Virus record (IMG/VR): IMGVR_UViG_3300001918_000035 | Span: 1-50,625 of that record | DNA from: a virus | Lineage: Duplodnaviria; Caudoviricetes | Direction: 5' to 3' (one strand) | DNA: 50,625 nucleotides | Shown here: piece by piece, positions 1-21,881 of the stretch | Layout of the letters: each line of letters begins with the position of its first letter | How positions within the stretch are numbered: position 1 is the stretch's first letter | Notes under the pieces: generated by a model | Told to the model about the DNA's origin: nothing | The model's database searches: none | What the model saw: only the letters and a program-made list of their open reading frames with translations | Program-made: the position numbers and the translations under genes

Positions 1-726
1 TCACAGCCACTCCGTCATAGAAAGCGCCCAGGCTGTGTCGTTCGGGTCGCGGCGCTCGTAGGCGTCGAAGCGATCAAAGGTGCCGTAGTGAATGCGCTCG
101 TTGCCACCGGCATTCTCGGAATCCGGCTCCTCGACCACTAGGACCGGCCGGCGCTCGCCGCGATCGTAGACGAGCGCCCATAGCTGGCGTCGGATCGCAT
201 CAGGGAGCCCGACGAAGCGCCACTTCAGCGAGCAGAGGACAACCCCATCCTCTCCACCGACGCCCCCGTCCGGCAGAAGCTCTTTCGTGCCTGTGTCGAT
301 CAGCTGCCGACCGCCGCCGCGCTCGTGAGGCGCCTGGAAGCGTGCGCCGGCCATGAAGATCCCGGCCGTAAAGGGAAAGCTGTCGCCTCCGGCCCGCACC
401 CGCAGATAGCGCGCCTGCCGCGGGGCGGGCAGGAGCGCGAGGCCATGGATCGGTCCGATTGCATCCAGGGCCCGGACCGGCTGATCCACGATGGTTTCTG
501 ACGTGCCGCCACCGAACTCCGATGTCAGATCGACCGCGAAGGACGCGTTCAGCGCATTGGTGAAGCCTAGGAAGATGGTGTCGATCGTCTTCACGGCGCC
601 AAGGTCGATGCCAATCGCGAAGAACCCCACCCCCGGGGCGACGTACACCTCCTTCGGCGATGGAGTTCGCAGGTTCTCGGCCCCGTTGGTGACCAGCGCG
701 ATGGGCTCGGGCCTGACGATGATCAT
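1..726 (-). CDS. phage minor tail protein (hypothetical, 241 aa, MIIVRPEP...)
   Basis: ATG at 726 overlaps the stop of the upstream gene (ATGA); the upstream part of ORF 1..1428 is a shadow; position in the tail operon. Confidence 0.7.
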   Translation of the reverse strand: MIIVRPEPIALVTNGAENLRTPSPKEVYVAPGVGFFAIGIDLGAVKTIDTIFLGFTNALNASFAVDLTSEFGGGTSETIVDQPVRALDAIGPIHGLALLPAPRQARYLRVRAGGDSFPFTAGIFMAGARFQAPHERGGGRQLIDTGTKELLPDGGVGGEDGVVLCSLKWRFVGLPDAIRRQLWALVYDRGERRPVLVVEEPDSENAGGNERIHYGTFDRFDAYERRDPNDTAWALSMTEWL

Positions 727-1085
727 AGCGCGCGCAGGACGGTGAGCACCGTCTGCTCCCGATCTTCGGCTTCCTCCACTCCGATCACGAAGGCGGGGAC
801 TCCGCCGGCATAGCCGAGCCGCTCCGATTCGATCGTGACGGCCCGGCCGTACAGGTCTGAGCGCAGGCCGGGCACCACATGAAGGTCGATCGCCAACGGC
901 CCACCAAGGAAGGCGATCTGCCGCGCGCCTTCGGCGTGGGCATCCGACTTGATCGCGAACGGTGTCACGATTTCGCTTTCGCCGGCGTCGCCGGCCCAAG
1001 CGGCGTCGATGGACGCCGCCGCAGCCGTCGTGAACAGCGCGCGCTCCTTCAGCCAGTCGGCGAACCCCGGGTCGACCGCCGCCAT
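723..1085 (-). CDS. phage tail-associated hypothetical protein
   Basis: Tightly packed in the operon; phage-like composition. Confidence 0.65.
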   Translation of the reverse strand: MAAVDPGFADWLKERALFTTAAAASIDAAWAGDAGESEIVTPFAIKSDAHAEGARQIAFLGGPLAIDLHVVPGLRSDLYGRAVTIESERLGYAGGVPAFVIGVEEAEDREQTVLTVLRAL

Positions 1086-1087
1086 CG

Positions 1088-1489
1088 TCAGCTCGCAGGC
1101 TCGGCCGGCGCAGCGGAAACCGCGTATCGGCTCGATGGCGCAGGATCCTCCGCCGGTTCGGGGTAGACAACGCCGAGCGGCGGCGGCTCACCGGTGTCGC
1201 GCATCGCGGCCAGCGCAATCGCCCGCCCCCGGCCGTCGCGCAGCTCGTGCCAGCCGTTGTCGCCGGCGAACGCGGCCAGGCTGCCGGCAAGCTGCTGGCC
1301 GGCCACGCCGGCCTCGTCGCGGCGCGCATAGAGCAGCTCGGCCAGGTTCGCGATCTGGTCGACCGGCGAGGCGCTCGAAGCGATCTCCTGGACTTGGTCG
1401 CGCAACTCTGCAGGCAGCGCCCCCGCATGGCTGACGAGGAACGCCGCGATCGCGCGCCTCGCCTCCGATATATCGCCGAAAAACTGCAT
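1088..1489 (-). CDS. hypothetical phage protein (MQFFGDI...)
   Basis: AGGAGG RBS at 1495-1500 before ATG 1489. Confidence 0.65.
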   Translation of the reverse strand: MQFFGDISEARRAIAAFLVSHAGALPAELRDQVQEIASSASPVDQIANLAELLYARRDEAGVAGQQLAGSLAAFAGDNGWHELRDGRGRAIALAAMRDTGEPPPLGVVYPEPAEDPAPSSRYAVSAAPAEPAS

Positions 1490-1500
1490 ATTGGCCTCCT

Positions 1501-4173: not shown

Positions 4174-7100
4174 AGCAACGACACCCGCTCGGTGCGCGAG
4201 AAGCTGCCGCCGATCAGCTGCGCGGCCGTCTGCGCCGGAGTGTTCGCCAGGCGCCGCAGATAGCTGTTCTGCTCCGCCAGCAGATCGTTCGTCTCGTTGG
4301 TCAGCGAATTGTTCGTGTCGAGCTTGTCGTTCGTCGCGCGCGCGGCCTCCGCCTGGGCTTTGACCCGCTCATTCTCGAGCGCGATGATCTGCTCGGCCGA
4401 GCTGCGGGAGCTGGCCAGGTCGGACGCGTATTCGGCGCCGGCGGTACCGAAGGCTTCTCGACTGATCTCGATCAGCTGCCGCCTCAGGTCGGCCACGCGC
4501 TGGGTCGCGCCCTCGCCGCCCGACCGGGCATCCGCTTCTGCGCTCGCGATCTCCCCGAGCAGCCGATCCCGCTGCTCGGCAAGCGTGCCCTCGAACAGGT
4601 TGCCGAACGACAGATCCTTCAGCAGCGCCTGAAGGGGCCCGGTGCGCTCGGCCAGGACGCGCTCGAGCGCCTGGTTCCGATCCTTCGCGTTCTGCTCCTC
4701 GAGCTTCACGAGGTCGAAGCCGTACTTGCGGGCGATCCGGTTCCGTTCGGCGATCTGACGCTCCAAATCCCTGAAGGTCTGGCCGATCGCGGCGTCGATC
4801 CCGCCGAGCAGCGTTTCCAGCTCCTGGACGTTCAGGGCTTCCTTGATCGCTTTCTCGATGTTGTCGTTGGATCCGAGAGCCTGAGCGACCTTCGGGCTCA
4901 GCCCGGTGATCGCGCCATCGGCGATCGCGTCTGCTATGGCGAAGGCGATCGCGCCGCCTTCGTCCTGCCCGAAGTCGATCGCGCCTCGCTTCGTTTTCGT
5001 GACGCCGCGGCCCGTCGGGTCGACACGCAGATTCTTGTCCCTGACGCCGATCGAGACGGCAAAGCTCCCGAGCGTCCCGCCAAGAGCTTCCGCAATCTGC
5101 TGCAACCCGCCTTGCACAGAGGTTGCAAGGCCGGATGCCGCCTGCCGAAGCCCAGCATTGTTTCCGGCAACGTCCGCCTTCTGATCGACGCTCGTGATGG
5201 TCGCCGAGGCGCGCGGCGTCGACTTCAGAAGGTTGCCCACCACACCGCCGAGAATGCCGCCAACGATCGATCCAAGCGGCCCAGCGGCACTGCCGAGCAT
5301 CCCGAAGAGCTGCTCGCCGGCGAGGCCGCCAAGGGCGCCGCCGATCGCGCCACCGGTGCTGCTGCCGACCAGGCTGCCGACCGACCCGCCCGCCGCACCA
5401 TAACCGAGCGTCTTGCCCAGAGTTTTCGAGAGGCCCTCCGGAAAGATGCCGCGCTCGCCGAACACGCGGCCAAACACCTTGTCCAGCGACTTCTCGAACG
5501 CGCCCGTCACGCTCTGGAAGCCGTCAGCGAAGCCATTGCCGCTTCCGCTGCCGAAGCGCCGGGCCAGATCGGCGCGACTGCGCGTGGCATAGTCTTCCAG
5601 GCTGCCGATCGGCGCGTCTGTTGGCCTGATCGGCGGAGTACCGGGCCCGCGCCGGGACAGAAGGGTCAGGATGCCGCCAGCTCGGCCCCCGACGGTGTTG
5701 AAATTGCCGGTTTGCGCGCCGGTCAGCAGCCCGATCAGCGGCCCGACGATGCGGCCGAGCCGGCCGCCGAGGATCTGGGCGATGGCCTGGGCAGCATCGA
5801 GACCCGTCTGGCGGAACGCGTCACCGCCGCTGCGACCGGCGTCCGCCATGCGGACCTTCAGGTCATCCGAAACATCGATCAGCGGGCGATCGATCGCCTC
5901 GGTGAGCGCTTTGCCTGCCTCGCCCAGCCGGTCCTTCAGCTGCTCGGCCTGGAGACGGGATATCTCCTGCGCATTGCGAACCCCGGCCTCCACCTGCAGG
6001 CGTTCGGACTGCTCCTGCGAAAGCATCCCGGCCGAGCGAAGCTTTATGATCTCGCTAAGGTCTTCGGTGTAGCGGCGGTTTGCTGCCGCGACGCCGTCAT
6101 AGCGGCTCTCGAGCCCCTCGAGCGCGCTCTGCAGCTCCCTGACCGATCGTGCGGCATCGCGCGTCGCCTTGGCGCCGGACTGGCGGGCTTCCCTCGCGCC
6201 TCGCTCGGCGGCCTCGGCAGCGTTCAGTTCGTTGGTGGCGGCGAGCAGCTGCTCGCGATAGGTCGCCGCGGCCTGCCCGCCGGCCTTAGCCGCGTCGCGA
6301 CCGCGCAGCTCGACGAGGCGCAGTTCCGCACGAGCCTTTGACGTCCGGTCGGTCGCCGCCGCAAGCGCCACCTCGGCCTCGATCAAAGACGTGTTGACCG
6401 GCGCCGCGGCGCGCCGGCTGTCGACCAGTCGTCGCTGAGCCTCGGTGGCGGTGCCCGCGGCAACCGCGATCTTCGCGACCTCGAGCCGCGTGTTCTCGGC
6501 GGCCTTGGCGCTGTCGACGGTTGCCCCGGCCAACTGCCGGATTCGGGTGGCCAAGCCACGGATCTTCGGATCGGAGCGGGCGATGCCGTCGACTGCGCGG
6601 CTGAACTGCTCTGCGTTGACCCGCCCCTGGGCGTAGGCCGCGGCAAGGCTCGCGACCTGGCGTTCGCTCCGCGTGATCTCAGTCGGCACGGCGATCTGGA
6701 AGCCGCGCTCGCCAACGGCCGTCCGCTGCTGACCGACCTCGAGCCCGGTTGTGATGAGCGCCGTGCGACGCCGCTGATATTCGAGACGCTGCCGGCCGAA
6801 CTCGACCGCGCGCTGATCTGCCGCTGCGAGCGCCTGGATGACAGAGATCTGGCGCGCCAGCTTGCCCGTCGTCTCGTCGACGATTCTGCCGAGATCGAAC
6901 TGCTTTTCCTCGAGCCGCTTCGTCGCGTCGGCGCCGTCGCGCATCGATGTTGCAAACAGGCCGATCAGCGTCGTGGCGCCGATTACCGCCGCGCCCCATG
7001 GACCGGCAAGGAAGCTCGCCACAGCGCCGACACGCCCGCCTACATTCGCCATGGCGGCCGCCAGCTGCCCGCCCTGCTGGCCGAGGATCAGGAATGCGTT

Positions 7101-7469
7101 GGTGCCGGCGATCGCCTGGACCTGGATATCCGACAGCTGCTGCGAGACCTGGACCATCGAGGCGCGCTGCTGGCGGAGTGCTGTGTCGGCATCCCTGCTC
7201 GCCCGAGAAAGGCGATCCTTCGACACGGCCACGCCCCCCGCGGCCGCGGCCGCGCCTCGCTCCGCCCGGGCCAATTGCTCGGCCGAGTTCGCCGCCTGCC
7301 GCATCGCCGACCCGACTCTGTCGGTGCTGGCGCGCAGCGTCTCGCCGCCGGCGGCGGCGCCCTTGGCGGCGGCGGCGACGTTTTGCATTTCCCGTTCGGT
7401 CAGGTTCAGCTGGCCGACCAGCCCGCCATCCTTGGCTGTCAGCCGGACAGAGACTGTCAGGTCGGTCAT
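4170..7469 (-). CDS. phage tail tape measure protein
   Basis: 1099 aa Ala-rich helical protein; QLSDIQVQ...GQQGGQL lambda-like TMP motif; Gly-rich C-terminal repeats; follows the tail chaperones. Confidence 0.9.
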   Translation of the reverse strand: MTDLTVSVRLTAKDGGLVGQLNLTEREMQNVAAAAKGAAAGGETLRASTDRVGSAMRQAANSAEQLARAERGAAAAAGGVAVSKDRLSRASRDADTALRQQRASMVQVSQQLSDIQVQAIAGTNAFLILGQQGGQLAAAMANVGGRVGAVASFLAGPWGAAVIGATTLIGLFATSMRDGADATKRLEEKQFDLGRIVDETTGKLARQISVIQALAAADQRAVEFGRQRLEYQRRRTALITTGLEVGQQRTAVGERGFQIAVPTEITRSERQVASLAAAYAQGRVNAEQFSRAVDGIARSDPKIRGLATRIRQLAGATVDSAKAAENTRLEVAKIAVAAGTATEAQRRLVDSRRAAAPVNTSLIEAEVALAAATDRTSKARAELRLVELRGRDAAKAGGQAAATYREQLLAATNELNAAEAAERGAREARQSGAKATRDAARSVRELQSALEGLESRYDGVAAANRRYTEDLSEIIKLRSAGMLSQEQSERLQVEAGVRNAQEISRLQAEQLKDRLGEAGKALTEAIDRPLIDVSDDLKVRMADAGRSGGDAFRQTGLDAAQAIAQILGGRLGRIVGPLIGLLTGAQTGNFNTVGGRAGGILTLLSRRGPGTPPIRPTDAPIGSLEDYATRSRADLARRFGSGSGNGFADGFQSVTGAFEKSLDKVFGRVFGERGIFPEGLSKTLGKTLGYGAAGGSVGSLVGSSTGGAIGGALGGLAGEQLFGMLGSAAGPLGSIVGGILGGVVGNLLKSTPRASATITSVDQKADVAGNNAGLRQAASGLATSVQGGLQQIAEALGGTLGSFAVSIGVRDKNLRVDPTGRGVTKTKRGAIDFGQDEGGAIAFAIADAIADGAITGLSPKVAQALGSNDNIEKAIKEALNVQELETLLGGIDAAIGQTFRDLERQIAERNRIARKYGFDLVKLEEQNAKDRNQALERVLAERTGPLQALLKDLSFGNLFEGTLAEQRDRLLGEIASAEADARSGGEGATQRVADLRRQLIEISREAFGTAGAEYASDLASSRSSAEQIIALENERVKAQAEAARATNDKLDTNNSLTNETNDLLAEQNSYLRRLANTPAQTAAQLIGGSFSRTERVSLL

Positions 7470-7816
7470 GGGCGCGCCGCCGCGGCCTCGATGGCCGCCG
7501 CCTCCATGATCAGCAGATCCGCGAAAAGTGCCGGCGTCATCTTCAGCCCCAAGCCTTCGGCCGTCGGCGCGACCGCCTCATAACGGATGCCCAGCCGCAC
7601 CCCGACGGTGGGGTGCCAGATCCATTGCGTGCCGAGCGCGGTGAACAGCGCGACAGCGTCCACTTCGTCCGGGCCGATCTCGATCGGCCGATCGGCCGTT
7701 GCGGGCCGCTCGACCCAGTCGGGCAGCGCTGCCGCCGCGGTCAGCGCGTCCGTCTCCGCCCGCTTGCCGCCGCCGCGCCCGCGGGCCCAAGCCTGCGCGG
7801 CGGCCTTCAGTTTCCC
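7466..7816 (-). CDS. tail assembly chaperone frameshift extension (DUF1799-like, gpGT equivalent)
   Basis: FTALGTQW...GIRYEAV...F.DL.IME.A motif; no own start; entered by -1 shift at GGGAAAC (7810-7816). Confidence 0.8.
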   Translation of the reverse strand, partial: GKLKAAAQAWARGRGGGKRAETDALTAAAALPDWVERPATADRPIEIGPDEVDAVALFTALGTQWIWHPTVGVRLGIRYEAVAPTAEGLGLKMTPALFADLLIMEAAAIEAAAARP

Positions 7817-8238
7817 TTCCTGATCTCCGCACCGCCGCGCACGCAGACGGAAAAGGCTTGGCACGCGGCCTGGAACACGCCGTTCACCTTCACGAGGCGG
7901 ACCAGGTTGTCGCGGCTGAACGGCAGCGGCTCGCCATTGGCGGCCGCCACCTTCCGCCAGTCGACGGTGAAGCGAAGCAGGAAATCCGCCCATTCGCCGC
8001 TCACAATGGCGGCGGGCTGCTCCGGTCGATCGCTTCCGTCCTCGCCGACCGCATCCATGCCGAGCCGGGCGACGCGCTGATCGACGCGGATGCCCTCGAT
8101 CTCCAGCGCCGCGACCTGATCGGCGTCCAGCAGCCGAAACTGCAGCTCGATCTCGTTCTGGACGATCGCACCGTCCTCCGCGACGCCGGGCCAGCGCACC
8201 GGCCACCAGGCTCGCTGCTCGTCGACCAGCTTGAACAT
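7807..8238 (-). CDS. tail assembly chaperone (gpG equivalent)
   Basis: Between tail tube and tape measure; ends G-GGA-AAC-TGA. Confidence 0.8.
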   Translation of the reverse strand: MFKLVDEQRAWWPVRWPGVAEDGAIVQNEIELQFRLLDADQVAALEIEGIRVDQRVARLGMDAVGEDGSDRPEQPAAIVSGEWADFLLRFTVDWRKVAAANGEPLPFSRDNLVRLVKVNGVFQAACQAFSVCVRGGAEIRKGN

Positions 8239-9176
8239 CAGCGCGCCTCCAGGATCAGATCGTCCTGGCCGGCGCGGACGTTCGCGCCATAGCCGATCGT
8301 GTACATCAGGTCGTCGCCATCCTCCTGCTCTTCGATGGAGAGGATCTGGACGAAGCCGAGCGTCAGCTCGACGATATTCCCGGCGACGGTCCCGTGCGTC
8401 ACCTGCGCCGCCACCTCGGCCCCGGTGCGGAGCGTGCCGAAATAGTTGCGCTCGCTGGCCTTGGGCGCCTTGATGACAATCTGCCCGGTCAGCGCATGGT
8501 TCCCGCGCTGGACGCTGTTCTCGCCGACCAGGTTGCGAACCGCCGGCTGCGCGCCGATCTCACCCGTGAACGACTGGAGCTTCGCCGCATAGCCGTCGAG
8601 CGTGAACTCGGTATTGGCCGTGTTCACCTCGAGCGGCGCGCGCCAGCGGCTGAAATCGGGGACGCCCGGAGCTGCGTCGGTGACCGGATCGCCCGCCGGC
8701 AGGAGACCGATCATCGAGAGGTTCAGAAAGGCGTATGCGCCCGCGGTGAAATTGAAGCCGAAAGTGCCGCGACAGCCCAGCGCCACCACCCTCTGATCGC
8801 CGCGCCAGCTGTAGACGGTCGCCGAGCTGAGCACAGCGCCGGCCGCAGCGAACCGCTGAGTCGCGCTCGTGTCGGCCACCAGCTCCGGCGCGACCATGCC
8901 GCACGCCTCGAGATGTTCCATCCAGCCAGGCGCGACGCCGGCGTCACCGGACCCGGCAAGCTCCAGCTCGTAGCTGAAGGCGGACCGCGCATTGGTGTTC
9001 GCGCTGGGCGATCGCCCGCGGGACGGCACGTCGAGATTCCGCTCGAGCGTGTCCATCTGTACCGGCGTTCGCTGGAAGTTACGCGTGAGCGCGGCGTTCG
9101 CAAGCGCCGTCGGGGCCGCGTCCGTGCCGTAAACGGCTTCCTTCTTCAGCAGGATCGTCTTGACGATATCGACCAC
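8238..9176 (-). CDS. phage major tail tube protein
   Basis: KKEAVYGTDAAP N-terminus, ELAGSG..G..P...LEACG motif; GTG start with GGAGG RBS; synteny. Confidence 0.8.
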   Translation of the reverse strand: MVDIVKTILLKKEAVYGTDAAPTALANAALTRNFQRTPVQMDTLERNLDVPSRGRSPSANTNARSAFSYELELAGSGDAGVAPGWMEHLEACGMVAPELVADTSATQRFAAAGAVLSSATVYSWRGDQRVVALGCRGTFGFNFTAGAYAFLNLSMIGLLPAGDPVTDAAPGVPDFSRWRAPLEVNTANTEFTLDGYAAKLQSFTGEIGAQPAVRNLVGENSVQRGNHALTGQIVIKAPKASERNYFGTLRTGAEVAAQVTHGTVAGNIVELTLGFVQILSIEEQEDGDDLMYTIGYGANVRAGQDDLILEAR

Positions 9177-9179
9177 GGG

Positions 9180-9377
9180 TCAGCCCTCCTCGGCTTGATC
9201 GGGATTTACGGCCGCCTCGGCCGCCTCGGCCGGCGCCAGCGCCGGATCCGCCTTCCCATTCAGCGCGCGCATGCGGGCGGGCCCGACGAGCGGCAGGCCG
9301 TGGCGGTCAAGCTCATAGCCCGCGTCGTTCATGCGGCGCGGCGCGGTCGGGGCGGCAGTTCGGGGGCGCTTTGTCAT
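9180..9377 (-). CDS. small hypothetical phage protein
   Basis: Fills the gap between terminator and tube genes; overlaps the upstream stop. Confidence 0.55.
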   Translation of the reverse strand: MTKRPRTAAPTAPRRMNDAGYELDRHGLPLVGPARMRALNGKADPALAPAEAAEAAVNPDQAEEG

Positions 9378-9787
9378 GTCAGCCTCAGTCTCCAGGCGGT
9401 CCTAAAGGTCACCCCCCACGCCATCATGCTTCCGTCAGCGGATAGCAGCCGGCCACCGGCCAGCTCGCACGCGCGCGAGGCGTCAGGATGCGTCCAGCCC
9501 GCGATCGCGCGGATCACTGCCTGGACCGCCTCCTCCAGCGCCTCGGATATCGCTTCGGCTCGGCGCGCGGCCGCCGGGAGCACGATCACCACCATGAAGG
9601 CTTGCTCGACCTTCTGGTCGATCGCGTGTTGGCCGGAGAGCGAGTTCGGGCTGGCCGCTTCACGCTCTGGAACGACGTAGAAGCTCTGTCCGGCCGGCGC
9701 CGCCTTCAGCCCGGCGAACTCCATGACGCCGTAGACGTGCGGCAGGCCAGCTCCCTTCAGACGGTCCACGAACGGCTGCAACCTCAC
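9374..9787 (-). CDS. phage tail terminator-like protein (VRLQPFVDRL...)
   Basis: GTG at 9787 overlaps the stop of the gpG-like gene; YVVP..E...AIAGW.HP...GG.LL..W pattern. Confidence 0.65.
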   Translation of the reverse strand: MRLQPFVDRLKGAGLPHVYGVMEFAGLKAAPAGQSFYVVPEREAASPNSLSGQHAIDQKVEQAFMVVIVLPAAARRAEAISEALEEAVQAVIRAIAGWTHPDASRACELAGGRLLSADGSMMAWGVTFRTAWRLRLT

Positions 9788-10311
9788 GGCGCCACCGCCG
9801 GCGCCGCGCCGCCGCTGGTGAAGGCCTGAAAGAGGTGGTCGGCGATCGCATCCAGCGCAAAGGCCCGGTTGACCTCGTCGAACCCGAGGAACGGCCGCGC
9901 CGGGATCACGACCTTGGCGACGATCCGACCGGCGAAGCTGAGCGCGCCAGCGGCGCGAGGGACGATGGTCGCGCCGAACTGATGTGTCGCCGCGTAGACG
10001 GCGGGGCCGCCTGACGCCTCGACGCCGGCAGCGGCATAGTCGGCGCCCCAGTCCGGCTGGACCGCTCCTCGGAGCATGCCGGAGAGCTGCAGGATCTTCT
10101 CGCCCGGGTTCTCGCGCGTGCGCTCCGTCTGCTTCCATGGCACGCCGTCCGGCCCGCGCTCGGCTTCGAAACGATCATCTGTGGTGGCCGCCAGGTGAAC
10201 GGCGATCTCCTGCATCGGCGCACTCAGATCGACCGCAAGCTCCGCCGCGCGCCGCAGCGCCCGGGTCAGCTCGTCGCCCAGCTCGATTTCGACGTCGATG
10301 CCTCCGCTCAC
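9784..10311 (-). CDS. phage virion morphogenesis protein (Mu gpG / P2 gpS family)
   Basis: RFEAERGPDGVPW, ILQLSGML, YAATHQFG, IPARPFLG motifs. Confidence 0.9.
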   Translation of the reverse strand: MSGGIDVEIELGDELTRALRRAAELAVDLSAPMQEIAVHLAATTDDRFEAERGPDGVPWKQTERTRENPGEKILQLSGMLRGAVQPDWGADYAAAGVEASGGPAVYAATHQFGATIVPRAAGALSFAGRIVAKVVIPARPFLGFDEVNRAFALDAIADHLFQAFTSGGAAPAVAP

Positions 10312-11039
10312 AGGCCATAGTCCTTGAGCCCGCCCGGATAGGCGCGGTCGCCCGGGGCGAAGAGCACCGGGTCGCTCGCCTGCTCCGCCGGCACGAGCGG
10401 TGCGGCCGACGGCACCGGAAGCTTGCCGTCCCGGATACTCTCAAGCATCCGGGTGCTGGCCTTTGCCGCCTCTTCGACGCCTTCGGGCGCGCCGTTCGGA
10501 TAAAGGCTGGCGCGCGCGAGATCGGCGATCGCCTTTTCGATGATGATCGGCACCGAAGCGAGCGGGAGCTGATAGCGGCCCGCCAGGTGCGCCTCGACGA
10601 CGGCCTGCGCATCGGTCAGCCGCGCGACGAGGAGATCGCGGTCGATCCTGCCCGAGCCATCCGCGTCGGTCATCCGCACGACTTCCGGCAGACCGAACCG
10701 GCGCACGAAGCTCTCGATCGTGAGATACGGAGCGCCCCCGTCCGGCATGACCCACGCGCCGTCGATCACCACGATCTCGGCATCGCTTTCGCGCGTCGAG
10801 CCATCCGCCAGCTCGGCGCGCGCGGTGAGCAGATAACGCTCGCCGTCCGTGCCGCCGCCGATCGTCGCCGTAGCGCGCCCGCCGAAGAGCGCCCAGTTCA
10901 GCGTGAGCGGAGCGGCGCCGGCGACGAGGCCTCGCGCGACTGCGCCGATCTCGATCAGCTGCGCGACCGCAATATCGCGGTCGAACTGAAGGTCGAGCTT
11001 GAGCTCCTCGGCCGGCTGCTTGGGGATCGTCTGCATCAT
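10308..11039 (-). CDS. Mu gp36-like head-tail adaptor (DUF1320) with extra ~100-aa N-terminal domain
   Basis: C-terminal PYLT...RFG..E...TD...AHLAGRYQLPL...IADLAR..LY motif. Confidence 0.8.
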   Translation of the reverse strand: MMQTIPKQPAEELKLDLQFDRDIAVAQLIEIGAVARGLVAGAAPLTLNWALFGGRATATIGGGTDGERYLLTARAELADGSTRESDAEIVVIDGAWVMPDGGAPYLTIESFVRRFGLPEVVRMTDADGSGRIDRDLLVARLTDAQAVVEAHLAGRYQLPLASVPIIIEKAIADLARASLYPNGAPEGVEEAAKASTRMLESIRDGKLPVPSAAPLVPAEQASDPVLFAPGDRAYPGGLKDYGL

Positions 11040-11275
11040 TCCAGCCCGAGCGCCGACCGATAGGTCTCGAGGAGCGCATCCGCTTCCTGGCGGACGTTCT
11101 TCTCCATGCGCCTCAGGCGCACGATCGCCCGCATCGTCTTCACGTCATAGCCGTTGGCCTTCGCTTCGGCGTAGACGTCGCGGATATCGTCGGAGATCCC
11201 CTTCTTCTCCTCCTCGAGGCGCTCGACGCGCTCGATGAAGAGCCGCAGCTGCTCGGCGGCGACAGCGTCCGACAT
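11036..11275 (-). CDS. gapR: GapR-like nucleoid-associated protein (DUF2312/UPF0335)
   Basis: AAEQLRLFIERVERLEEEKKGISDDIRDVYAEAKANGYDVKTMRAIVRLR, the hallmark DUF2312 sequence. Confidence 0.92.
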   Translation of the reverse strand: MSDAVAAEQLRLFIERVERLEEEKKGISDDIRDVYAEAKANGYDVKTMRAIVRLRRMEKNVRQEADALLETYRSALGLE

Positions 11276-14660: not shown

Positions 14661-15638
14661 ATGCTGCAGGCAACAGACCGGGAGGTGGTCCGGTTTGATC
14701 TCACCTTCGATACCAACCCGTCTGGGCTTACCGTTCCGATGACCGAGATCGGCACCTATCTTCTGGACCGAGTTCAAGCGGGGCTGGCCGTTTCTGCAAT
14801 CGAGGCCGAAAGATATCTCTTGCTGATTGCCGACGGTCGGATGGTGGCGCTTCCATCCGGCGCTCGAGCCCTATCGCTTCTCTTCCACCTCGGCGATCCA
14901 GATGCGTCTGATGCCTCCGTCATTCATCTGAAGAAGCGCACTTTACGACATTTCCAAAAAGAAGAGGAAGAAGGCCGGGCTGTGTCCGCTCATCTGCTAC
15001 TTTGCCTCGAGCCGGCGACCCCCAGAGGCAGGATTTATCGCGCACTCTTGGAGAAAGTTGTTGGCCTCGGACAGAGCAGGGTGAAACCCGAGTTACAGCG
15101 TCAGCTTAGGCAGGTCTTCCGCGATAAAGAGATTCCAGTCACTGATATTGATGGAAACGAGCGAAAGGCCATCCCAAGGGTAGAACTCCAGCCGGTTGCC
15201 TCGGAACGGCTGAAAGCGGAGCTGCAGGACGGAACAAAAATCGGAACGGTCCGCCTCGTGAACAGCCGAATTGAGGACGGCGGCTTCGATCCGCCCGCCT
15301 TCGCCGAGATAAAGCGCCGCGAGATGGCTTTGAAGGTCGATGTTCCGCTTGGCATGAAGGCTGAGGAGGCGCTTCGGGCTCTCCAGCTTTTCGCGCGCGA
15401 GAACCGATTCGATGAAATGTATGTGCAGTGGGAGCGTCCGAAGCCTGCGTCGGCTGACGAGAGGGTCATGCCGAACCGCGCGAAAATCGATGTGATGAAC
15501 GACGATATCGGAGAGACGCTCTTCGCGCAGCGGCATATCATCAAGCTAGCGGAGCGCATGAACGATTGCGTGCCCGCCCTGCGGGACGATATGATCGATG
15601 CGATGGCCGCCCTGCTCGACCAGGCGCAACGCGGGTGA
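14661..15638 (+). CDS. accessory soluble protein, unknown function (candidate defence component)
   Basis: 325-aa ORF with GGGG/AGG RBS, lower GC than flanks, divergent from the structural operon. Confidence 0.75.
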   Translation: MLQATDREVVRFDLTFDTNPSGLTVPMTEIGTYLLDRVQAGLAVSAIEAERYLLLIADGRMVALPSGARALSLLFHLGDPDASDASVIHLKKRTLRHFQKEEEEGRAVSAHLLLCLEPATPRGRIYRALLEKVVGLGQSRVKPELQRQLRQVFRDKEIPVTDIDGNERKAIPRVELQPVASERLKAELQDGTKIGTVRLVNSRIEDGGFDPPAFAEIKRREMALKVDVPLGMKAEEALRALQLFARENRFDEMYVQWERPKPASADERVMPNRAKIDVMNDDIGETLFAQRHIIKLAERMNDCVPALRDDMIDAMAALLDQAQRG

Positions 15639-15653
15639 AATTGGGCTAACGCT

Positions 15654-16244
15654 TTGACGCTGCTTGCACCTCTACGTTTTTTGACGATTCGGCACCGGTT
15701 TTGGTTCCGATACAACCTCGTTTTGCCCGCAGCAGGGGGCGGAATCGCAGCCGCAACCGTGATGTTCTGGCCTGGCGCAAGTTCACTGGCGGGTAACGCC
15801 GGCCTCCTGAGTCAGCTACAAAATCCACTCGCCATCCTCGGTGGATTTTTCGTGGCTGCGCTGACGCTGATTACTACAGAGAAGAATGGCGTTCTCTCCG
15901 CCAAGATTGGCGGTTCATCGCCGCCCCGCTTGCCACGCGAGCCTGAGCCGCTGAGCCGAAGGAGATTTCTCGCGTATCTGTTTGGATACCTATCTTTCTC
16001 GGCATTCTCATTAGTCATGATTTCGGTAGCAGTGAGCACACTAGCTCCTGGCGCATCTGAAATGATGCCACCGATGGCGCGGCCTTACGTAAAGGGCTTG
16101 GTCACATTCATTCTTGCGACGTGGACATCGCACGTTTTCGTGTCGACGCTTCTTGGCCTCTATTACTTTACGGAGCGCCTGCAGCAGATGGACGTGGAAC
16201 CTCGAGCTGGCCGACCTGCGGCAACTCCTACGCCGGCTGAATAG
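15654..16244 (+). CDS. accessory 4-TM membrane protein (candidate defence effector)
   Basis: Four hydrophobic segments; 15 bp after the previous gene; low GC; TTG start is uncertain. Confidence 0.7.
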   Translation: MTLLAPLRFLTIRHRFWFRYNLVLPAAGGGIAAATVMFWPGASSLAGNAGLLSQLQNPLAILGGFFVAALTLITTEKNGVLSAKIGGSSPPRLPREPEPLSRRRFLAYLFGYLSFSAFSLVMISVAVSTLAPGASEMMPPMARPYVKGLVTFILATWTSHVFVSTLLGLYYFTERLQQMDVEPRAGRPAATPTPAE

Positions 16245-16449: not shown

Positions 16450-16471
16450 CACGTAGAGCAGATTGAGAAAC

Positions 16472-17308
16472 ATGGAGTCGAGTCCCTTGGAGCCGGTGCG
16501 TCCGGTTCGACCCGCGGCTGCCTATATCGGCGGCAAGCGGAACCTGTCCCGCCGCCTGGTCGCCATGATCGATGGCGTCACTCATGAGGCGTATTGCGAA
16601 CCGTTCGTCGGCATGGGCGGTGTTTTCCTGCGCCGGACGCGGCGGCCGAAAGTGGAGGTCGTGAACGACATCAGCGGCGACGTCGTGACTCTCTTCCGGG
16701 TCCTGCAGGAGCACTATCCATATTTCGTCGACATGCTTCGATGGCGCCTGACCAGCCGGGCAGAGTTCGAGCGTCTGCTGTCCCTGCCTGGTGATCGGCT
16801 GACCGATCTGCAGCGCGCTGCGCGCTTTCTCTACGTCCAACGGACAGCGTTCGGCGGCAAGGTCGCGGGCCGCACCTTCGGCGTCTCGCCAATGACGTCC
16901 GCTCGTTTTGACGTCACGAAGCTGGAACCTCTCCTCGCCGATTTGCACGAACGCCTGGCGGGTGTGGTGATCGAGCGACTTGCATGGTCGGAGTTCCTGG
17001 ATCGCTACGATCGACCTGGAACGCTGTTCTACCTCGATCCGCCTTACTGGGGCTGCGAAGACGACTATGGCCCCGGCGTTTTCGACGGTTCGAACTTTGA
17101 GCGGCTGGCCGACCACCTGGCGCGCCTGAGAGGGCGCTTCATCTTGTCGATCAACGACCGCCCAGAAATTCACCGCTTGTTTTCGCGGTTCCACATTGCT
17201 CCCGCGACGCTGACATATCGGATCAGTGGCGCTCCGACCGACGCCCACGAACTGATTATAAGCAGCCCTGATATTTGCGGTGGACTGAGTGGTCATAACG
17301 GGTGCTAA
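16472..17308 (+). CDS. DNA adenine methyltransferase (Dam/D12 class), orphan
   Basis: YIGGKRNL, YCEPFVGMGGVF, VVND, FYLDPPY, FILSIND motifs. Confidence 0.93.
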   Translation: MESSPLEPVRPVRPAAAYIGGKRNLSRRLVAMIDGVTHEAYCEPFVGMGGVFLRRTRRPKVEVVNDISGDVVTLFRVLQEHYPYFVDMLRWRLTSRAEFERLLSLPGDRLTDLQRAARFLYVQRTAFGGKVAGRTFGVSPMTSARFDVTKLEPLLADLHERLAGVVIERLAWSEFLDRYDRPGTLFYLDPPYWGCEDDYGPGVFDGSNFERLADHLARLRGRFILSINDRPEIHRLFSRFHIAPATLTYRISGAPTDAHELIISSPDICGGLSGHNGC

Positions 17309-17344
17309 CACCTTGACCCGCACGCTGGCCAACTTCATGAATCG

Positions 17345-17613
17345 GCCAGGTGTCCGTACCGTCCTTTTCCTCCGGCTCCGGCAGCGCTCCCTAATCGGCG
17401 CGGGGGGCCAGTCGGGCTCTCCGGAGGCCGGGCTCTGCCCGGGGCAAGAAAAGGAGACCGCCTATGCGACGCGTCTTTGTGCGCTCGTATACGCGCTGGC
17501 GGCTTGGCCGGGTGGAGGCTGTGAGGGCCCACACCCGGCGCTGGCCTAACCAGTTCGTGTTCTCGTTCGTGAAGTAGCAACACTCTCGATCGGCGGTACG
17601 GGCACCACCTGGC
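17345..17613 (+). ncRNA. candidate structured transcript with paired 5'/3' ends enclosing a small ORF
   Basis: GCCAGGTG-TCCGTACCGTC (17345-17363) complementary to GGCGGTACGGG-cac-CACCTGGC (17592-17613); TTGACC at 17313 upstream. Confidence 0.5.
17464..17577 (+). CDS. 37-aa Arg-rich peptide MRRVFVRSYTRWRLGRVEAVRAHTRRWPNQFVFSFVK
   Basis: AAGGAG RBS at 17451-17456, ATG 17464, TAG 17575-17577; below the ORF-track size cut-off. Confidence 0.65.
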   Translation: MRRVFVRSYTRWRLGRVEAVRAHTRRWPNQFVFSFVK

Positions 17614-17760
17614 AGATCATTCGAACCACCAGCCGAATGATACCGGTCCGCAAGCGCGACGATACGAATCGCGCCCGCCGTATGTCAAACGTTGTATGGC
17701 CATTTCGGACGAGCTGCGCAGACCTGCAGAACAAAGCCGGTGTGCTTGCGCGAATCGGCA

Positions 17761-17775
17761 GAACGCCGCCAGAAC
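17761..17775 (+). promoter_or_regulatory. alphaproteobacterial LexA (SOS) box
   Basis: GAAC-GCCGCCA-GAAC, exact GAAC-N7-GAAC, intergenic, just downstream of a TTGCGC -35-like hexamer. Confidence 0.65.
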
Positions 17776-17841
17776 ATTCCGGTGCTGTCGCCCACGTCGT
17801 CATCGATTCGCCTCCAGCCAGCCTTCCCAGACAAGGTCGAG

Positions 17842-18033
17842 ATGTATCGGTTCGTGACGCCGGCACGCTGTGGCGAGTGGCGGGAGTCGCGCCGGCGCGC
17901 GATGCTGGACGCCGCGCGCGCCGGCTTCGGCTCGATCGACGAACACCCCGCCGCCCCGGGCGAGGAGCGCCGAATCTATCTGCACCCGTTCGTGGCGATC
18001 GAAACGACCGTTCTGGCCGAGCAAGCAGCCTGA
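17842..18033 (+). CDS. small hypothetical protein (63 aa, MYRFVTPARCGEW...)
   Basis: AAGG RBS before ATG 17842; downstream of the SOS box. Confidence 0.55.
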   Translation: MYRFVTPARCGEWRESRRRAMLDAARAGFGSIDEHPAAPGEERRIYLHPFVAIETTVLAEQAA

Positions 18034-18196: not shown

Positions 18197-18868
18197 TCAC
18201 CATTGCTTGCCGGACCAGACGACGCGACCGAGAACGCGGAGTCGCTCGTCGACTTCGGCCGCCGGCACATCAATTGGCCCATAATCCGGGTTTTTGCTGA
18301 GAATGAGGATCCCGATGGCCGATCTCTGAAGCCGCTTCACCATCAGCTCGCCGTCAAACACGATGACGTACATCGCCTCGGCTCGATATCGCTGGCTCTT
18401 ATCGTACATTACAAGATCGCCGTCGCTGATGTCCGGCAACATGCTCTTCCCGCGAGCAATGACGATCTCGAGGGAGGATAACGAGCCCAACGTCCGAGCG
18501 TAGCTAGCGGGGAAAGGCAGCTCGTCTACGACCGCCGGCTCTGCCCCGGCAGACCGACCATATCCGGCCGAAGCCTCAACCTCGACGATCGGAATATTGA
18601 CTATCGCGTCCCGGAGGTCGCTCGCCGATTGACCTCCCGTCAACAGGAAATCGACACTGACCCCGACTTCGGCTGCGATCGCGGCGAGCCTAGCTGCGCC
18701 GATCCCTTGGCCGGTCCGCAGGACGTTGTTCAGGTTCTGCCGGCTGATTCCTAAGCGACGCGCGATCTCAGCCTGACCGCCCGCTTTCTTCACAGCCGTG
18801 GCAAGCCGTTCCCGAGCCTCGTCGGATAGCCCTTTCGCTTCCGAGCGAGACTTACTTGACATGTCCAC
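18197..18868 (-). CDS. CI/LexA-like prophage repressor (XRE HTH + S24 peptidase)
   Basis: HTH GQAEIARRLGISRQNLNN; ASAGYG cleavage site; GKSM (Ser) and VKRL (Lys); divergent from ner; start may be 18862. Confidence 0.92.
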   Translation of the reverse strand: MDMSSKSRSEAKGLSDEARERLATAVKKAGGQAEIARRLGISRQNLNNVLRTGQGIGAARLAAIAAEVGVSVDFLLTGGQSASDLRDAIVNIPIVEVEASAGYGRSAGAEPAVVDELPFPASYARTLGSLSSLEIVIARGKSMLPDISDGDLVMYDKSQRYRAEAMYVIVFDGELMVKRLQRSAIGILILSKNPDYGPIDVPAAEVDERLRVLGRVVWSGKQW

Positions 18869-18902
18869 TTTGCTTGTCCATTGAAATGCGACACATCGTC
18901 AA
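18856..18902. promoter_or_regulatory. immunity switch: opposed promoters between repressor and ner
   Basis: TTGACA at 18856-18861 (+), TTGACG at 18902-18897 (-), TGTCCA direct repeat between them. Confidence 0.5.
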
Positions 18903-18914
18903 GGAGCTGTCGCG

Positions 18915-19196
18915 TTGGCGCAGGACTGGCACCCGGAGGACATCAAGGCGGAGGTTCGCAAGCGCGGGATGACGCTCGCCGAGATCGGCCGCCTCAACGG
19001 CTTGTCTCGTCAGACGATGGCACATGCGCTGGTCCAGCCGAGTGCTGCTGCGGAGCGGGTGATCGCCGATGCGATCGGGATCGCTGCTCATCATATCTGG
19101 CCCTCCCGCTACCACCCGGACGGGAGCCGCAAGCGTCCGCAGCCTCCCGTCAATTATCACCGTATGCCGCGCTTCGTCGCAGAGGCGGCCGCGTGA
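18915..19196 (+). CDS. ner: Ner/Nlp family transcriptional regulator
   Basis: DWHPEDIKAEVRKRGMTL...AERVIADAIG...IWPSRY; TTG start with AAGGAG RBS. Confidence 0.92.
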   Translation: MAQDWHPEDIKAEVRKRGMTLAEIGRLNGLSRQTMAHALVQPSAAAERVIADAIGIAAHHIWPSRYHPDGSRKRPQPPVNYHRMPRFVAEAAA

Positions 19197-19297
19197 GCCT
19201 CACCTACCAGCATATTTCCCGCGTTTTCCACCTGCAAATGTGGACAGTCCGCGACGCCGTCTCGCTCTGGGACTGCGGTGAAGGCGCGCGACGCTGA
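19193..19297 (+). CDS. possible 34-aa peptide coupling ner to transposase
   Basis: GTGA overlap with the ner stop and TGATG overlap with the transposase start. Confidence 0.35.
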   Translation: MSLTYQHISRVFHLQMWTVRDAVSLWDCGEGARR

Positions 19298-21099
19298 TGC
19301 GGGCCGGGGGGACGCATCTCAGCGCAGGCGATCTGGCCCAGCTGGAGCTTGACGGGCTGCCGTCGACGAAGCGCGGTGTCGCTCTGCTGGCGGACCGGGA
19401 GGGCTGGTCCTGGACGGATCAACCCGGCAATGGCGGCTTGACGCGTCTCTACGCGATCGCCGACCTGCCGGTTCTCGCTCGCCGCGATCTCGCCGCCCGC
19501 TGGGCGGACCAGGCGCCGAGCAGCTTGCGCGGACGCGGGCGGCCGAAGGGCACGGACTTCTTCACGCGCCACCCCGATGTGGCCAGCGCGGTCGAGGCGA
19601 TCCTTGCCGAGCGGCAGCTGTCCGTTCCTCGCATTCTCGAGCTTCTGGAAACCCGGTTCGACGAGCTGCCGTCGCTCCGCACGCTGCGGCGGTTCGTGAC
19701 CACGGTCGAGCGCGCTAAGCCTGCTCTGCTGGCCTCCACGCGCGATCCGGACGCCTACAAGAGCCGCTTCCGCGTCTCACTTGGCCGCGCCGATGGCGGC
19801 GTCACCCATGCCCACCAGGTGTGGGAGCTGGACACCACCAAGGCGGACGTCATGACCAGGGGCGGCCGCCGCATGGTCCTGGGCGTGATCGACCGTTGGT
19901 CGCGTCGTGCGCGCTTCCTGGTGGCGCCGTCGGAGAGCGGGCAATCCGTCCGGCGCTTGCTGATCGACACGATCCGCGGCTGGGGCGTGCTGCCGGAGGC
20001 GGTCGCGACCGACAACGGTGCCGGCTATATCAATGCCTCGATCAAGACGGCGCTCGAGGCGCTCGGGATCGAGCACCGGATCTGCCCGCCGGGAAGCCCG
20101 GAAAAGAAGCCGTTCGTGGAGCGGCTGTTCGGGACATTCACCCGCGAACGGGCGGAGCTGCTGCGCGGCTACGCCGGCCACAGCGTCGCCGAAGCGCAGA
20201 AGCTGCGCGCGATCGCCCGCAAGCAGACCGGCCGGGCCGTGATCGTGCCGGAGCTTGAGGCCGACGAGCTGCAGGCGATTCTCGATGCTTGGGTAGATGG
20301 CGTCTACCACCAGCGGGAGCACAGCGCCCTCCGGATGACGCCGATGGCCAAGTGGCTGTCCTCCCCGACGCGGGCAGCAGCTGCGCCCGCCGAGGATGTG
20401 CTGAAGGTCGCGCTCTCCGCCTATGTCGGGACGCACAAGGTCGGGAAGCGCGGCTTGGTGTGGCGAGGCGGACGCTATTGGGCCGCGGAGCTGGCGCCGT
20501 TCGTCGGCCGGCCGGTCACCGTTCGCCGGGACGAAGAAGATCTCGGGGCGCTGTTTGCCTTCGACGAGAACGGCCGTTTCATCGGCACGGCAGTCAATGC
20601 CGAACGGGCTGGGTTGTCCGAAGAGCTGTTCGCTAGGGAGGCGCGGCGCCAGCAGGCCGATTGGATGAAGGCGGCGCGCGCGGAGCTGCGCGACCGCCAG
20701 CGTGATTTCTCGATCGAGAAGGCCAAGGACCAGCTGCTGCGCCGCGACGCCGAGCGCGCAGGCAGGCTCACCGCCCTGCCGCTTCCGACCACGGAACGGG
20801 CAACCGCCACCATGCTCAGTATCGCTCTGGCGCCGGCGCCATCGATGCCGACACCTGAGCGCCTGGCGGACGCCGTTCGCCGTTCCGCGCCTGGCCCACG
20901 CTTGGAGAGCCTCGCCGATCGGATCGCCCGCGTCGACGCTGTCATCGCCGCCGCCGATCGCGGCGAGGCGGTCGATCCCGACGAGCTGCGCCGCGCAAGG
21001 CTCTACGCCACCTCAACGGAATACCGCGCCGAGAAGCTGACGGCAGCGGTCTTCCGGCCCCGAACAACCGCCCCGATCCCCGGCCGCAAGGTCGGCTGA
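19297..21099 (+). CDS. Mu-type DDE transposase (MuA-like)
   Basis: N-terminal Mu HTH (GLPSTKRG...REGW); WELDTT, TDNGAGY, KPFVERLF catalytic motifs; Mu-transposase C-terminal region. Confidence 0.95.
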   Translation: MRAGGTHLSAGDLAQLELDGLPSTKRGVALLADREGWSWTDQPGNGGLTRLYAIADLPVLARRDLAARWADQAPSSLRGRGRPKGTDFFTRHPDVASAVEAILAERQLSVPRILELLETRFDELPSLRTLRRFVTTVERAKPALLASTRDPDAYKSRFRVSLGRADGGVTHAHQVWELDTTKADVMTRGGRRMVLGVIDRWSRRARFLVAPSESGQSVRRLLIDTIRGWGVLPEAVATDNGAGYINASIKTALEALGIEHRICPPGSPEKKPFVERLFGTFTRERAELLRGYAGHSVAEAQKLRAIARKQTGRAVIVPELEADELQAILDAWVDGVYHQREHSALRMTPMAKWLSSPTRAAAAPAEDVLKVALSAYVGTHKVGKRGLVWRGGRYWAAELAPFVGRPVTVRRDEEDLGALFAFDENGRFIGTAVNAERAGLSEELFAREARRQQADWMKAARAELRDRQRDFSIEKAKDQLLRRDAERAGRLTALPLPTTERATATMLSIALAPAPSMPTPERLADAVRRSAPGPRLESLADRIARVDAVIAAADRGEAVDPDELRRARLYATSTEYRAEKLTAAVFRPRTTAPIPGRKVG

Positions 21100-21119
21100 C
21101 CACCGAAGGAGGACTGCCT

Positions 21120-21881
21120 GTGACCCAAGCTTTCGAACCTCAGCTGGAGCTGGAGCCGGCGCGGCCGGTCCATGCGCAGCTGACCAACATGAGCCTCGCG
21201 CTGCGCACGCTGCTCGATTGCCAGGAGGCGCCCGAGGGGAGCCCGCGCCTCGGCCTGTTCTATGGGCCATCCGGCTACGGCAAGAGTGTGGCCGCTGCCT
21301 TCTGCGCCGGCCGGTTCGAGGCCGCGTTCATCGAAGCGAAGTCGGTCTGGGCTCAGCGCTCGATCCTCGAGGCGATCGCCCGCGAACTGGGCGTAAGCCG
21401 GCTGGAGCGGACCAACCCCAAGATCCTCCAGCAGATCATCGACGCGCTCCGGCACGAGCCCCGCGCGCTGATCATCGACGAGATGGATCACCTGGTGAAG
21501 AAGCAGTCCGTCGAGGTGATCCGCGACATCCACGACGGCGCGGGCGTGCCGATCATGATGATCGGCGAAGAGGCGCTGCCGGCGAAGCTCAAGGAATGGG
21601 AGCGGTTCGACAACCGCATCCTGGTCGCCACCGCTGCTCAGCCGGCAAGCTTCGACGACGGTCGCAAACTGCGCGATCATTACTGCAACCGGGTGTCGAT
21701 CGCCGACGATCTCGTCGCGCTGTTCGTCGAGCGCACGAAGGGCGTCACTCGCCGGGTCGTGACCAATCTCCAGCAGGCGCAGCGCCTGGCGCTCGAGGAG
21801 GGCGCAGACGCGATCGACTGCGATTGGTGGGGACGCCGCCCGGTGCTGACCGGCGAAGTCGCGCTGCGGCGGGCAGCGTGA
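21120..21881 (+). CDS. MuB-like AAA+ transposition ATPase
   Basis: Walker A GPSGYGKS, Walker B LIIDEMD, IRDIHD; follows transposase. Confidence 0.93.
   Translation: MTQAFEPQLELEPARPVHAQLTNMSLALRTLLDCQEAPEGSPRLGLFYGPSGYGKSVAAAFCAGRFEAAFIEAKSVWAQRSILEAIARELGVSRLERTNPKILQQIIDALRHEPRALIIDEMDHLVKKQSVEVIRDIHDGAGVPIMMIGEEALPAKLKEWERFDNRILVATAAQPASFDDGRKLRDHYCNRVSIADDLVALFVERTKGVTRRVVTNLQQAQRLALEEGADAIDCDWWGRRPVLTGEVALRRAA

Follow-up and report, generated by a model that had tools for sequence, protein, structure and literature searches.

Two kinds of described system come closest to the element treated here, a predicted transcription unit for a 37-amino-acid (aa) peptide in the IMG/VR provirus record IMGVR_UViG_3300001918_000035, the whole 50,625-bp stretch of which is called the window below. 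The first kind comprises toxins directed at the DnaN sliding clamp, of which SocB of Caulobacter is reportedly one. The toxin RipA of the Streptococcus pneumoniae Rosmer system also acts on DnaN (PMC12795458). The second kind comprises the type I toxin mRNAs of the hok/Sok and AapA1/IsoA1 systems. The full-length AapA1 mRNA, as reported (PMC5416894), is 253 nt long, has an interaction between its 5' and 3' ends and a sequestered Shine-Dalgarno (SD) sequence, and is activated by 3' processing; the 5'-3' helix itself is reported there to end transcription.

The unit in the window shares with hok/Sok and AapA1/IsoA1 an mRNA of about 250-300 nt, a long-distance 5'-3' helix (hereafter the closing helix), a sequestered SD, an open reading frame (ORF) in the range of 30-50 aa, a promoter of its own and carriage by mobile elements; as is reported for AapA1, the closing helix seems to replace a terminator. 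It differs in that its leader fold is a motif of its own, without an Rfam match, and in that the antisense RNA is represented here only by a candidate promoter. With SocB and RipA it shares a proposed target, the protein-binding pocket of DnaN, and a proposed outcome, replication stress. Those toxins are larger proteins, controlled by protein partners or by proteolysis, and in a comparison by family search only, no Pfam, NCBIfam or PADLOC family match ties them to the peptide. The reading put forward here, to which we give about an even chance, is that of a translationally locked mRNA of the hok/AapA type that encodes a clamp-targeting peptide and is carried on mobile elements; selection on the ORF, covariation of the helices and the position of the promoter were computed, and the placement on DnaN is taken from a structural model. 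The parts of the unit are as follows.

17313-17341, plus strand: promoter-like site TTGACC-17 nt-CATGAA (TTGACC at 17313-17318, CATGAA at 17336-17341)
17345-17363, plus strand: 5' arm of the closing helix, GCCAGGTG-TCCGTACCGTC
17362-17369, plus strand: anti-SD segment TCCTTTTC, complementary to GAAAAGGA at 17448-17455
17370-17375 with 17421-17426, plus strand: leader helix P3, CTCCGG with CCGGAG
17387-17391 with 17402-17406, plus strand: leader helix P4
about 17428-17442, plus strand: leader hairpin P6
17448-17456, plus strand: SD region GAAAAGGAG, sequestered in the predicted fold
17464-17577, plus strand: 37-aa ORF MRRVFVRSYTRWRLGRVEAVRAHTRRWPNQFVFSFVK, with the core at residues 3-28 and the C-terminal tail QFVFSF
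17592-17613, plus strand: 3' arm of the closing helix, GGCGGTACGGG-cac-CACCTGGC (the arms were found as inverted repeats)
17616-17641, plus strand: hairpin ATCATTCG-10 nt-CGAATGAT, directly after the 3' arm and without a T-run, an uncertain part of the unit
17688-17659, minus strand: candidate convergent antisense promoter TTGACA-18 nt-TATCGT, with 10 of 12 matches, reading back into the element

The 37-aa ORF, read as in an initial annotation made from the sequence alone, is a real gene under strong purifying selection. Among 24 gap-free ORFs of 105 nt, the entropy per codon position is 0.49/0.45/1.18, 2813 of 3413 single-base codon differences (82%) are synonymous, and all minus-strand frames are interrupted by stops in some of the ORFs (7, 22 and 16 of the 24). 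A HMMER scan of 1.84 billion cluster representatives returned 17 proteins at E<=1e-3 (best 1.8e-13), and R7, Y9, R11, R13, H23, R25, W27 and P28 are invariant in the 17 sequences formed by the window peptide and 16 scan matches. A degenerate codon pattern for the invariant residues was then scanned against viral contigs, where it found 47 stretches, one of which (L034) looks like a chance match, and against one-genome-per-species contigs, where it found at least 120. Most of the genomic matches listed come from Alphaproteobacteria (Sphingomonadales, Hyphomicrobiales/Rhizobiales, Rhodobacterales, Caulobacterales); Beta- and Gammaproteobacteria and Bacteroidales contribute a few, and the Acidobacteriaceae one.

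The peptide significantly matches phrog_21154 (E 1.5e-8, 35.7 bits; 7.4e-9 in a six-frame search), a profile of 47 positions of which only 20-46 are covered, and which carries no annotation or RNA context. Searches of the peptide against Pfam, NCBIfam and PADLOC gave no family, and the ESM Atlas and cluster records gave no name beyond 'hypothetical protein'. Likewise, blastn and tblastn against cultured phages and plasmids returned nothing, with short and biased queries that limit this search. A full-text literature search for HTRRWP, supplementary files lying outside it, found no paper, and the papers searched on small clamp-binding toxins of prophages and on type I toxins of Alphaproteobacteria yielded nothing on the peptide family.

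The conserved core is rich in beta structure and in Arg, Tyr, His and Trp. Its twofold V-x-x-[Y/H]-x-R motif, to which the initial annotation had drawn attention, corresponds to V6/Y9/R11 and V20/H23/R25, invariant in 75 relatives. For the peptide alone, AlphaFold2 gives a mean predicted local distance difference test score (pLDDT) of 81.8 and shows four short strands (3-6, 9-13, 16-20 and 23-26) rather than the single, putatively nucleic-acid-binding hairpin suggested in the initial annotation, with a core predicted confidently (pLDDT 87-94) and a flexible tail (about 53); a Foldseek comparison of this model with the PDB found no match with E below 2. A natural variant of 53 aa (P0001) carries an internal tandem duplication of YKRWRFGREELVTAHTR(P/R), which agrees with the twofold repeat in the core.

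The RNA 17342-17625 has a predicted minimum free energy (MFE) of -146.3 kcal/mol, compared with -125.85 +/- 5.28 in 200 dinucleotide shuffles (z -3.87), none of which is as stable. Its MFE structure holds the closing helix and the TCCTTTTC:GAAAAGGA anti-SD pairing together. Both pairings had been proposed in the initial annotation; they form in this fold exactly where it placed them, and both undergo compensatory changes in relatives, as the following comparisons indicate.

For the closing helix, an alignment-free search was carried out on 139 loci with full flanks, in which a 5' flank (-170 to -75 from the ATG) was matched with a 3' flank (+1 to +90 after the stop) in cognate and non-cognate pairs. 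The best helix had a median score of 33 in cognate vs 21 in non-cognate pairs, and the cognate helix exceeded the 99th percentile of the controls in 45 of the 139 loci and the control maximum in 18. This local search replaced an RNAduplex comparison of 100-nt flanks, in which cognate and minus-strand energies were equal (over-fitted). The peptide and its flanking complementarity, whose joint conservation the initial annotation had made a test of its reading, are kept together in 70 distinct elements, in favour of that reading, with the helix at its expected position. Tandem paralogous units, each with its own closing helix, were seen in two loci (L031, 8165-8746; L033, 2174-2777), with peptides MLKPKLVAV... 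and MKKIIERLVYV....

Covariation was measured in 35 of the 70 elements on a plain MAFFT alignment that was not fitted to the structure. From this alignment RNAalifold recovers a 15-bp closing helix, with changes on both sides in 17 of the 23 pairs it predicts; the 15-bp helix is 95.5% paired in the 35 relatives and has both sides changed in 13 of its 15 pairs. The closing helix and P4 taken together have 93.9% paired cells vs 79.6% in column shuffles (none of 500 reaches the value) and 126 double-change cells vs 37, and sliding the 3' partners by 1-3 columns gives a pairing of 35-60%. Among the non-standard cells of the closing helix, as summed from a per-pair table, 58 are G-U and 23 are others, with U-G in 13 sequences at one pair, and over 62 helices there are 95 G-T mismatches vs 59 A-C. 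The G-U excess therefore points to an RNA of the plus strand. In a second group of elements, designated group 2 (peptide MLKPKLVAVRAY..., hosts of the Ochrobactrum type), the closing helix reaches about 30 bp.

Palindromes like the hairpin at 17616-17641 follow the 3' arm in several close relatives; across the 70 elements, a general terminator hairpin 3' of the arm is not enriched (the 45 nt fold at -10.1 vs -11.05 kcal/mol in controls). The closing helix and a canonical intrinsic terminator are nearly exclusive, occurring together in 7 of 137 loci, and the closing helix itself may end transcription, as reported for AapA1.

The AGGAG of the SD region ends 7 nt before the ATG. The anti-SD pairing is present in the MFE fold of 41 of the 70 related elements, and the SD window has at least 5 paired nt in all 70. 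Anti-SD duplexes have a mean energy of -15.7 kcal/mol for cognate vs -12.5 for non-cognate partners, 43 of the 70 cognates falling in the best quartile, and on a model-fitted alignment the helix is 78.5% paired with changes on both sides in all 14 pairs. The anti-SD helix (P2) was combined with P3, P4 and P6 in a hand-drawn leader structure. On the unfitted alignment this structure is 79.5% paired vs 73.4% in shuffles (0 of 500 as high), with 88 double-change cells vs 40; on the model-fitted alignment, which leans towards the structure, the figures are 83.0% vs 72.0%.

The covariance model R1, built from this leader and searched in 168 scan loci and the window, matches the window at 17356-17466 (66.6 bits, E 4.7e-13) and has matches with E<=0.01 in 57 loci and in none of 30 control loci. 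Each of the 57 lies on the strand of the peptide ORF and stops immediately 5' of it. Even relatives without the closing helix keep, along with the peptide, a conserved leader RNA of several helices; the group-2 elements have a different leader, which R1 does not match. Rfam gave no match at the gathering threshold across the whole window. In several relatives, the 3' half of the 5' arm has two possible partners, the 3' arm and the bases that directly follow the SD, which suggests alternative folds.

The promoter-like site proposed in the initial annotation is present, and its -10 ends 4 nt before the 5' arm. In the 70 elements, sigma-70-like sites whose -10 ends 2-14 nt 5' of the arm number 27 vs 1.6 expected at 8 of 12 matches, and 11 vs 0.22 at 9 of 12, the expected counts being derived from flanking DNA; the site of the window is excluded from the 27 because the helix search had extended the arm over it. 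Since such sites are enriched just upstream, the 5' arm is very probably the 5' end of the predicted transcript. The CATGAA element is weak, with three of six matches to TATAAT, and a stricter promoter scan of the window did not list the site; it resembles the TATGAA -10 of several relatives.

Convergent antisense antitoxins are known in some Gram-positive type I systems. In the present family, 11 of the 70 elements have minus-strand promoter-like sites 0-90 nt past the 3' arm at 9 of 12 matches (1.5 sites expected), and 29 have them at 8 of 12 (11.4 expected), the background being mostly coding DNA, so that the enrichment is possibly overstated and counts as weak evidence.

Of the features that mark type I toxin mRNAs, the unit has a small coding ORF (<60 aa) and, by prediction and covariation, a sequestered SD and pairing of its 5' and 3' ends. 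At the level of RNA architecture, the type I-like reading as a locked mRNA is well supported. The initial annotation had described a self-contained, post-transcriptionally locked peptide module of an unnamed family, and this part of its interpretation stands, with covarying helices, a conserved peptide and no family name; the roles that it offered for the module, addiction, defence or an RNA-binding switch, are putative. Two conserved features had escaped it, the leader RNA beyond the closing helix and a tail resembling a clamp-binding motif, and the tail changes the most likely target.

Bacterial clamp-binding motifs take the forms Q-phi-xLF (consensus QL[S/D]LF) and Q-phi-xLxL, with QLSLPL in Hda, QLVLGL in Pol IV and QVELEF in Pol III alpha as examples (bioRxiv 10.64898/2026.05.27.728225; PMC4549789). 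The tail of the window peptide, QFVFSF, lies two residues from the C-terminus and fits such a motif. Scored as Q-[LYMFIVH]-x-[LFM]-x-[LF] or Q-phi-x-[LF]-F, a clamp-like motif is present in 81 of 135 distinct core-bearing peptides, and in 79 of these it lies no more than 3 residues from the C-terminus; a further 43 peptides stop within 4 residues after WP, and 11 have other tails. Examples are QLSFDF, QYSFNF, QLAFDF, QLELPL, QLSLPF, QLSLFT and QLTLFS, and Gln30 is invariant in 75 tail-bearing peptides. Like the motifs of Pol IV, Hda and Pol III alpha, the tail is a Q-phi-x-hydrophobic-x-hydrophobic hexapeptide at the extreme C-terminus, and some family members carry exactly QLSLF, QLELPL or QLSLPF. 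It differs from them in being attached to a 26-residue core and in that its binding is modelled.

The sliding clamp as the likely target is a new proposal, made from the tail motif and a structural model. The complex was modelled with the peptide of a Sphingopyxis chromosome (locus L124) and the DnaN of that genome, identified as a sliding clamp by its match to solved clamps (E 1e-118), on alignments made by the author with 28 relatives of DnaN and 74 of the peptide. The interaction prediction score from aligned errors (ipSAE) came to 0.71/0.70/0.70, compared with 0.00 for the best of three controls; in calibration, 58 of 80 solved complexes attained the mark used, as did 2 of 110 mismatched pairs. 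The partner pLDDT was 49-57, at least 62% of the contacts agreed between runs, and confident contacts came only from peptide residues 27-35. The predicted contacts on DnaN are residues 152, 176, 178-179, 181, 247, 249, 252, 283, 285, 325, 349, 351, 365 and 367-370. These we take to correspond to both subsites of the pocket that binds peptides in the E. coli clamp, a hydrophobic pocket between domains II and III.

The tail also goes with the closing helix, which is present in 64 of 97 tail-bearing loci vs 5 of 40 tail-less loci, although many loci are related and these counts are not independent events. Among the 40 tail-less loci, 18 lack the closing helix and carry an ordinary intrinsic terminator. 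The association would fit a clamp-binding form that is dangerous and needs a tighter lock.

The genomic settings of the unit are varied. It lies between the genes for the terminase large subunit (TerL) and the portal protein, on the opposite strand, in nine viral loci on contigs of about 14 kb; by size and gene order these head clusters would seem to be of the gene-transfer-agent type. Among 22 portal-related loci, the peptide was found only in the query's own contig. The TerL-portal gap is at most 28 nt in 5 of the 22, with unrelated inserts at the junction in others. This junction (L202-L207) is a hot spot for unrelated cargo, such as an apparent GIY-YIG-type nuclease, judged by eye only, in L207, a 190-aa ORF on the opposite strand in L202, and larger inserts in L204 and L206. 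An S24 repressor gene is found near the unit in 16 viral loci and in the window. Furthermore, genes for IS1595-family transposases (ISXO2-like, PF12762, E 4.2e-39) lie about 0.2-1.5 kb from the peptide gene in 15 loci (L094, L103, L109, L141, L142, L145 and nine more); in six loci they stand on both sides, facing inward in five, and in 9 of the 15 the peptide is tail-less. Insertion sequences (IS) of this family may carry the unit along or may use it as a target. In the preferred reading, the unit is self-contained accessory cargo of mobile elements. It resembles phage morons in having its own promoter, variable sites, an orientation often opposite to that of the operon and a junction that holds other cargo; morons are defined by their position, whereas here the RNA architecture is the conserved feature.

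In the window, the stretch of 14-19 kb that holds the unit has a G+C content of 58-63%, lower than its surroundings, and contains the following neighbours.

14661-15638, plus strand: match to PDC-M53A, a PADLOC candidate defence gene (E 1.4e-13)
15654-16244, plus strand: match to PDC-M53B, a PADLOC candidate defence gene (E 5.9e-24)
16463-17308: D12-class N6-adenine DNA methyltransferase (Pfam E 2.2e-17; PADLOC MTase_II E 1.2e-58)
18197-18868, minus strand: S24/CI-like repressor
18197-21881: Mu-like early region, with the repressor (minus strand), a Ner-like HTH_35 protein, a Mu-type transposase (rve and Mu-transpos_C) and a MuB/TniB-like AAA ATPase

Because candidate defence genes and a methyltransferase gene lie upstream and the repressor, Ner, transposase and MuB-like genes downstream, the unit is placed in an accessory island adjoining the lysogeny module of a Mu-like prophage. 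Only 4 nt separate the end of the methyltransferase gene from the promoter-like site; in passing, no cognate nuclease was noticed for it. The PDC-M53A/B pair (14661-16244) also matches phrog_16499 and phrog_8257, neither with an assigned function. Between the unit and the repressor gene lies an ORF of up to 113 aa (17692-18033, plus strand), for which no Pfam, PHROG or PADLOC match was found. A search for the terminal inverted repeats of the Mu-like prophage gave no clear pair, leaving its ends undefined, and an ARAGORN search of the window for transfer and transfer-messenger RNAs found nothing. Elsewhere in the window, positions 1-11100 hold tail, tape-measure, adaptor and portal-fragment genes on the minus strand, and the G+C content rises from about 63% to 74-78% near 39 kb; a tail-assembly gene lies in that part, at 41943-44360 (minus strand). 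The record may consist of two phage-like elements, or of a Mu-like phage inside another element. The portal-like protein encoded at 29838-31811 (phrog_113, E 1.7e-93) has C-terminal residues 425-570 that match the 'RNA ligase' phrog_755 (E 3.6e-21).

In the mechanism proposed here, the unit would be one autonomous transcription unit of about 270-300 nt that starts at the 5' arm. The finished mRNA would close by its 5'-3' helix, and the segment beside the 5' arm would pair with the SD; because of this closure and pairing, the mRNA would be stable yet untranslatable. Processing, or loss of a regulator, would then open the lock and allow translation of a peptide of 35-40 aa, whose small core would be a basic beta-sheet and whose Q-phi-x-[LF]-x-[LF] tail would be flexible. 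According to the model, the tail may enter the protein-binding pocket of the DnaN sliding clamp. By competing there with polymerases and other clamp clients, the peptide would arrest replication and could thus serve as a toxin in addiction or abortive infection; its toxicity, the trigger and a convergent antisense antitoxin RNA are the presumed parts of this scheme. A more far-reaching version, in which the unit is the founding member of a widespread, hitherto undescribed class of RNA-locked toxins that plug the clamp instead of attacking the membrane, with a convergent antisense RNA, spread among Alphaproteobacteria by prophages, gene-transfer-agent-like clusters and IS1595, and with a core that binds its own leader, is possible but doubtful.

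Besides the relatedness of the loci mentioned above, several observations weigh against the locked clamp toxin. The peptide is Arg-rich and beta-structured and has no hydrophobic stretch, in contrast to the hydrophobic membrane helix of the hok and AapA1 toxins, a difference that the initial annotation had already recognised. Because the 5' arm can re-pair after the SD in relatives, the SD might stay closed when the 3' arm is removed, in contrast to hok and AapA1. Position 4 of the tail motif is usually Phe, whereas the consensus has Leu. The good score of the complex model may reflect memory of the many solved clamp-peptide structures, and since there are so many, it shows that the tail looks like a clamp motif and not that this copy binds. 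Finally, 43 of the 135 distinct peptides are tail-less yet have the same invariant core, and because they keep it, the core must have a function beyond that of a simple pocket competitor.

Such a function could be RNA binding, as in ribosomal-protein leaders, where the protein binds its own leader and feeds back on translation. The core would here bind P2-P6 of its own leader, and the peptide would be an autoregulated mini-protein with a regulatory rather than a killing role, for example as a clamp-tethered or RNA-bound regulator of the mobile element. The joint occurrence of leader motif and core in all 57 model matches, tail-less forms with ordinary terminators among them, agrees with this, as do the retention of the core with or without the tail and the invariant R7, Y9, R11, R13, H23, R25 and W27, residues that would be typical of nucleic-acid contacts. 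However, the group-2 elements keep the peptide and the closing helix with a different leader that R1 does not match, and the correlation between tail and closing helix is left unexplained; overall, autoregulation seems unlikely. A core that binds DNA is also conceivable, with a tail that recruits the clamp or the fork and so aids transposition or replication of Mu-like phages and IS1595 elements. The position of the window unit beside Mu-like repressor, Ner and MuA/MuB genes and the IS1595-family transposase genes in 15 loci would suit such a helper, and transposases of many IS families bind the clamp by a C-terminal QLxLF motif (PMC4549789). Nevertheless, the peptide is tail-less in 9 of those 15 loci, the unit also occurs in head-gene clusters without a transposase, and a helper needs neither a translation lock nor placement on the opposite strand, which makes this role rather improbable.

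A feature of the DNA itself, with the arms as terminal inverted repeats of a miniature mobile element or as a recombination site and the ORF incidental, might be suspected from the varied genomic sites and from arms that form inverted repeats of up to about 30 bp in group 2. The arm sequences, unlike transposase-bound ends, vary freely while pairing is kept, the G-U pairs are biased to one strand, covariation extends to the internal anti-SD and leader helices, and the ORF is under strong purifying selection, so that this explanation is barely credible. A miniature inverted-repeat element was accordingly set aside as a candidate, since the arms vary with compensation and the promoter lies outside them, which is not the arrangement of boundary repeats.

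The module is abundant, with 47 viral loci and at least 120 genomic stretches, yet nameless in all the libraries searched. If the locked clamp toxin is the correct reading, the closing helix and the covarying four-helix leader would constitute a new structured RNA family without an Rfam match, and the peptide would be a natural 35-residue ligand for the pocket of the bacterial sliding clamp. A non-membrane peptide that targets replication would then join the type I-like toxins, almost all of which are small hydrophobic membrane peptides.

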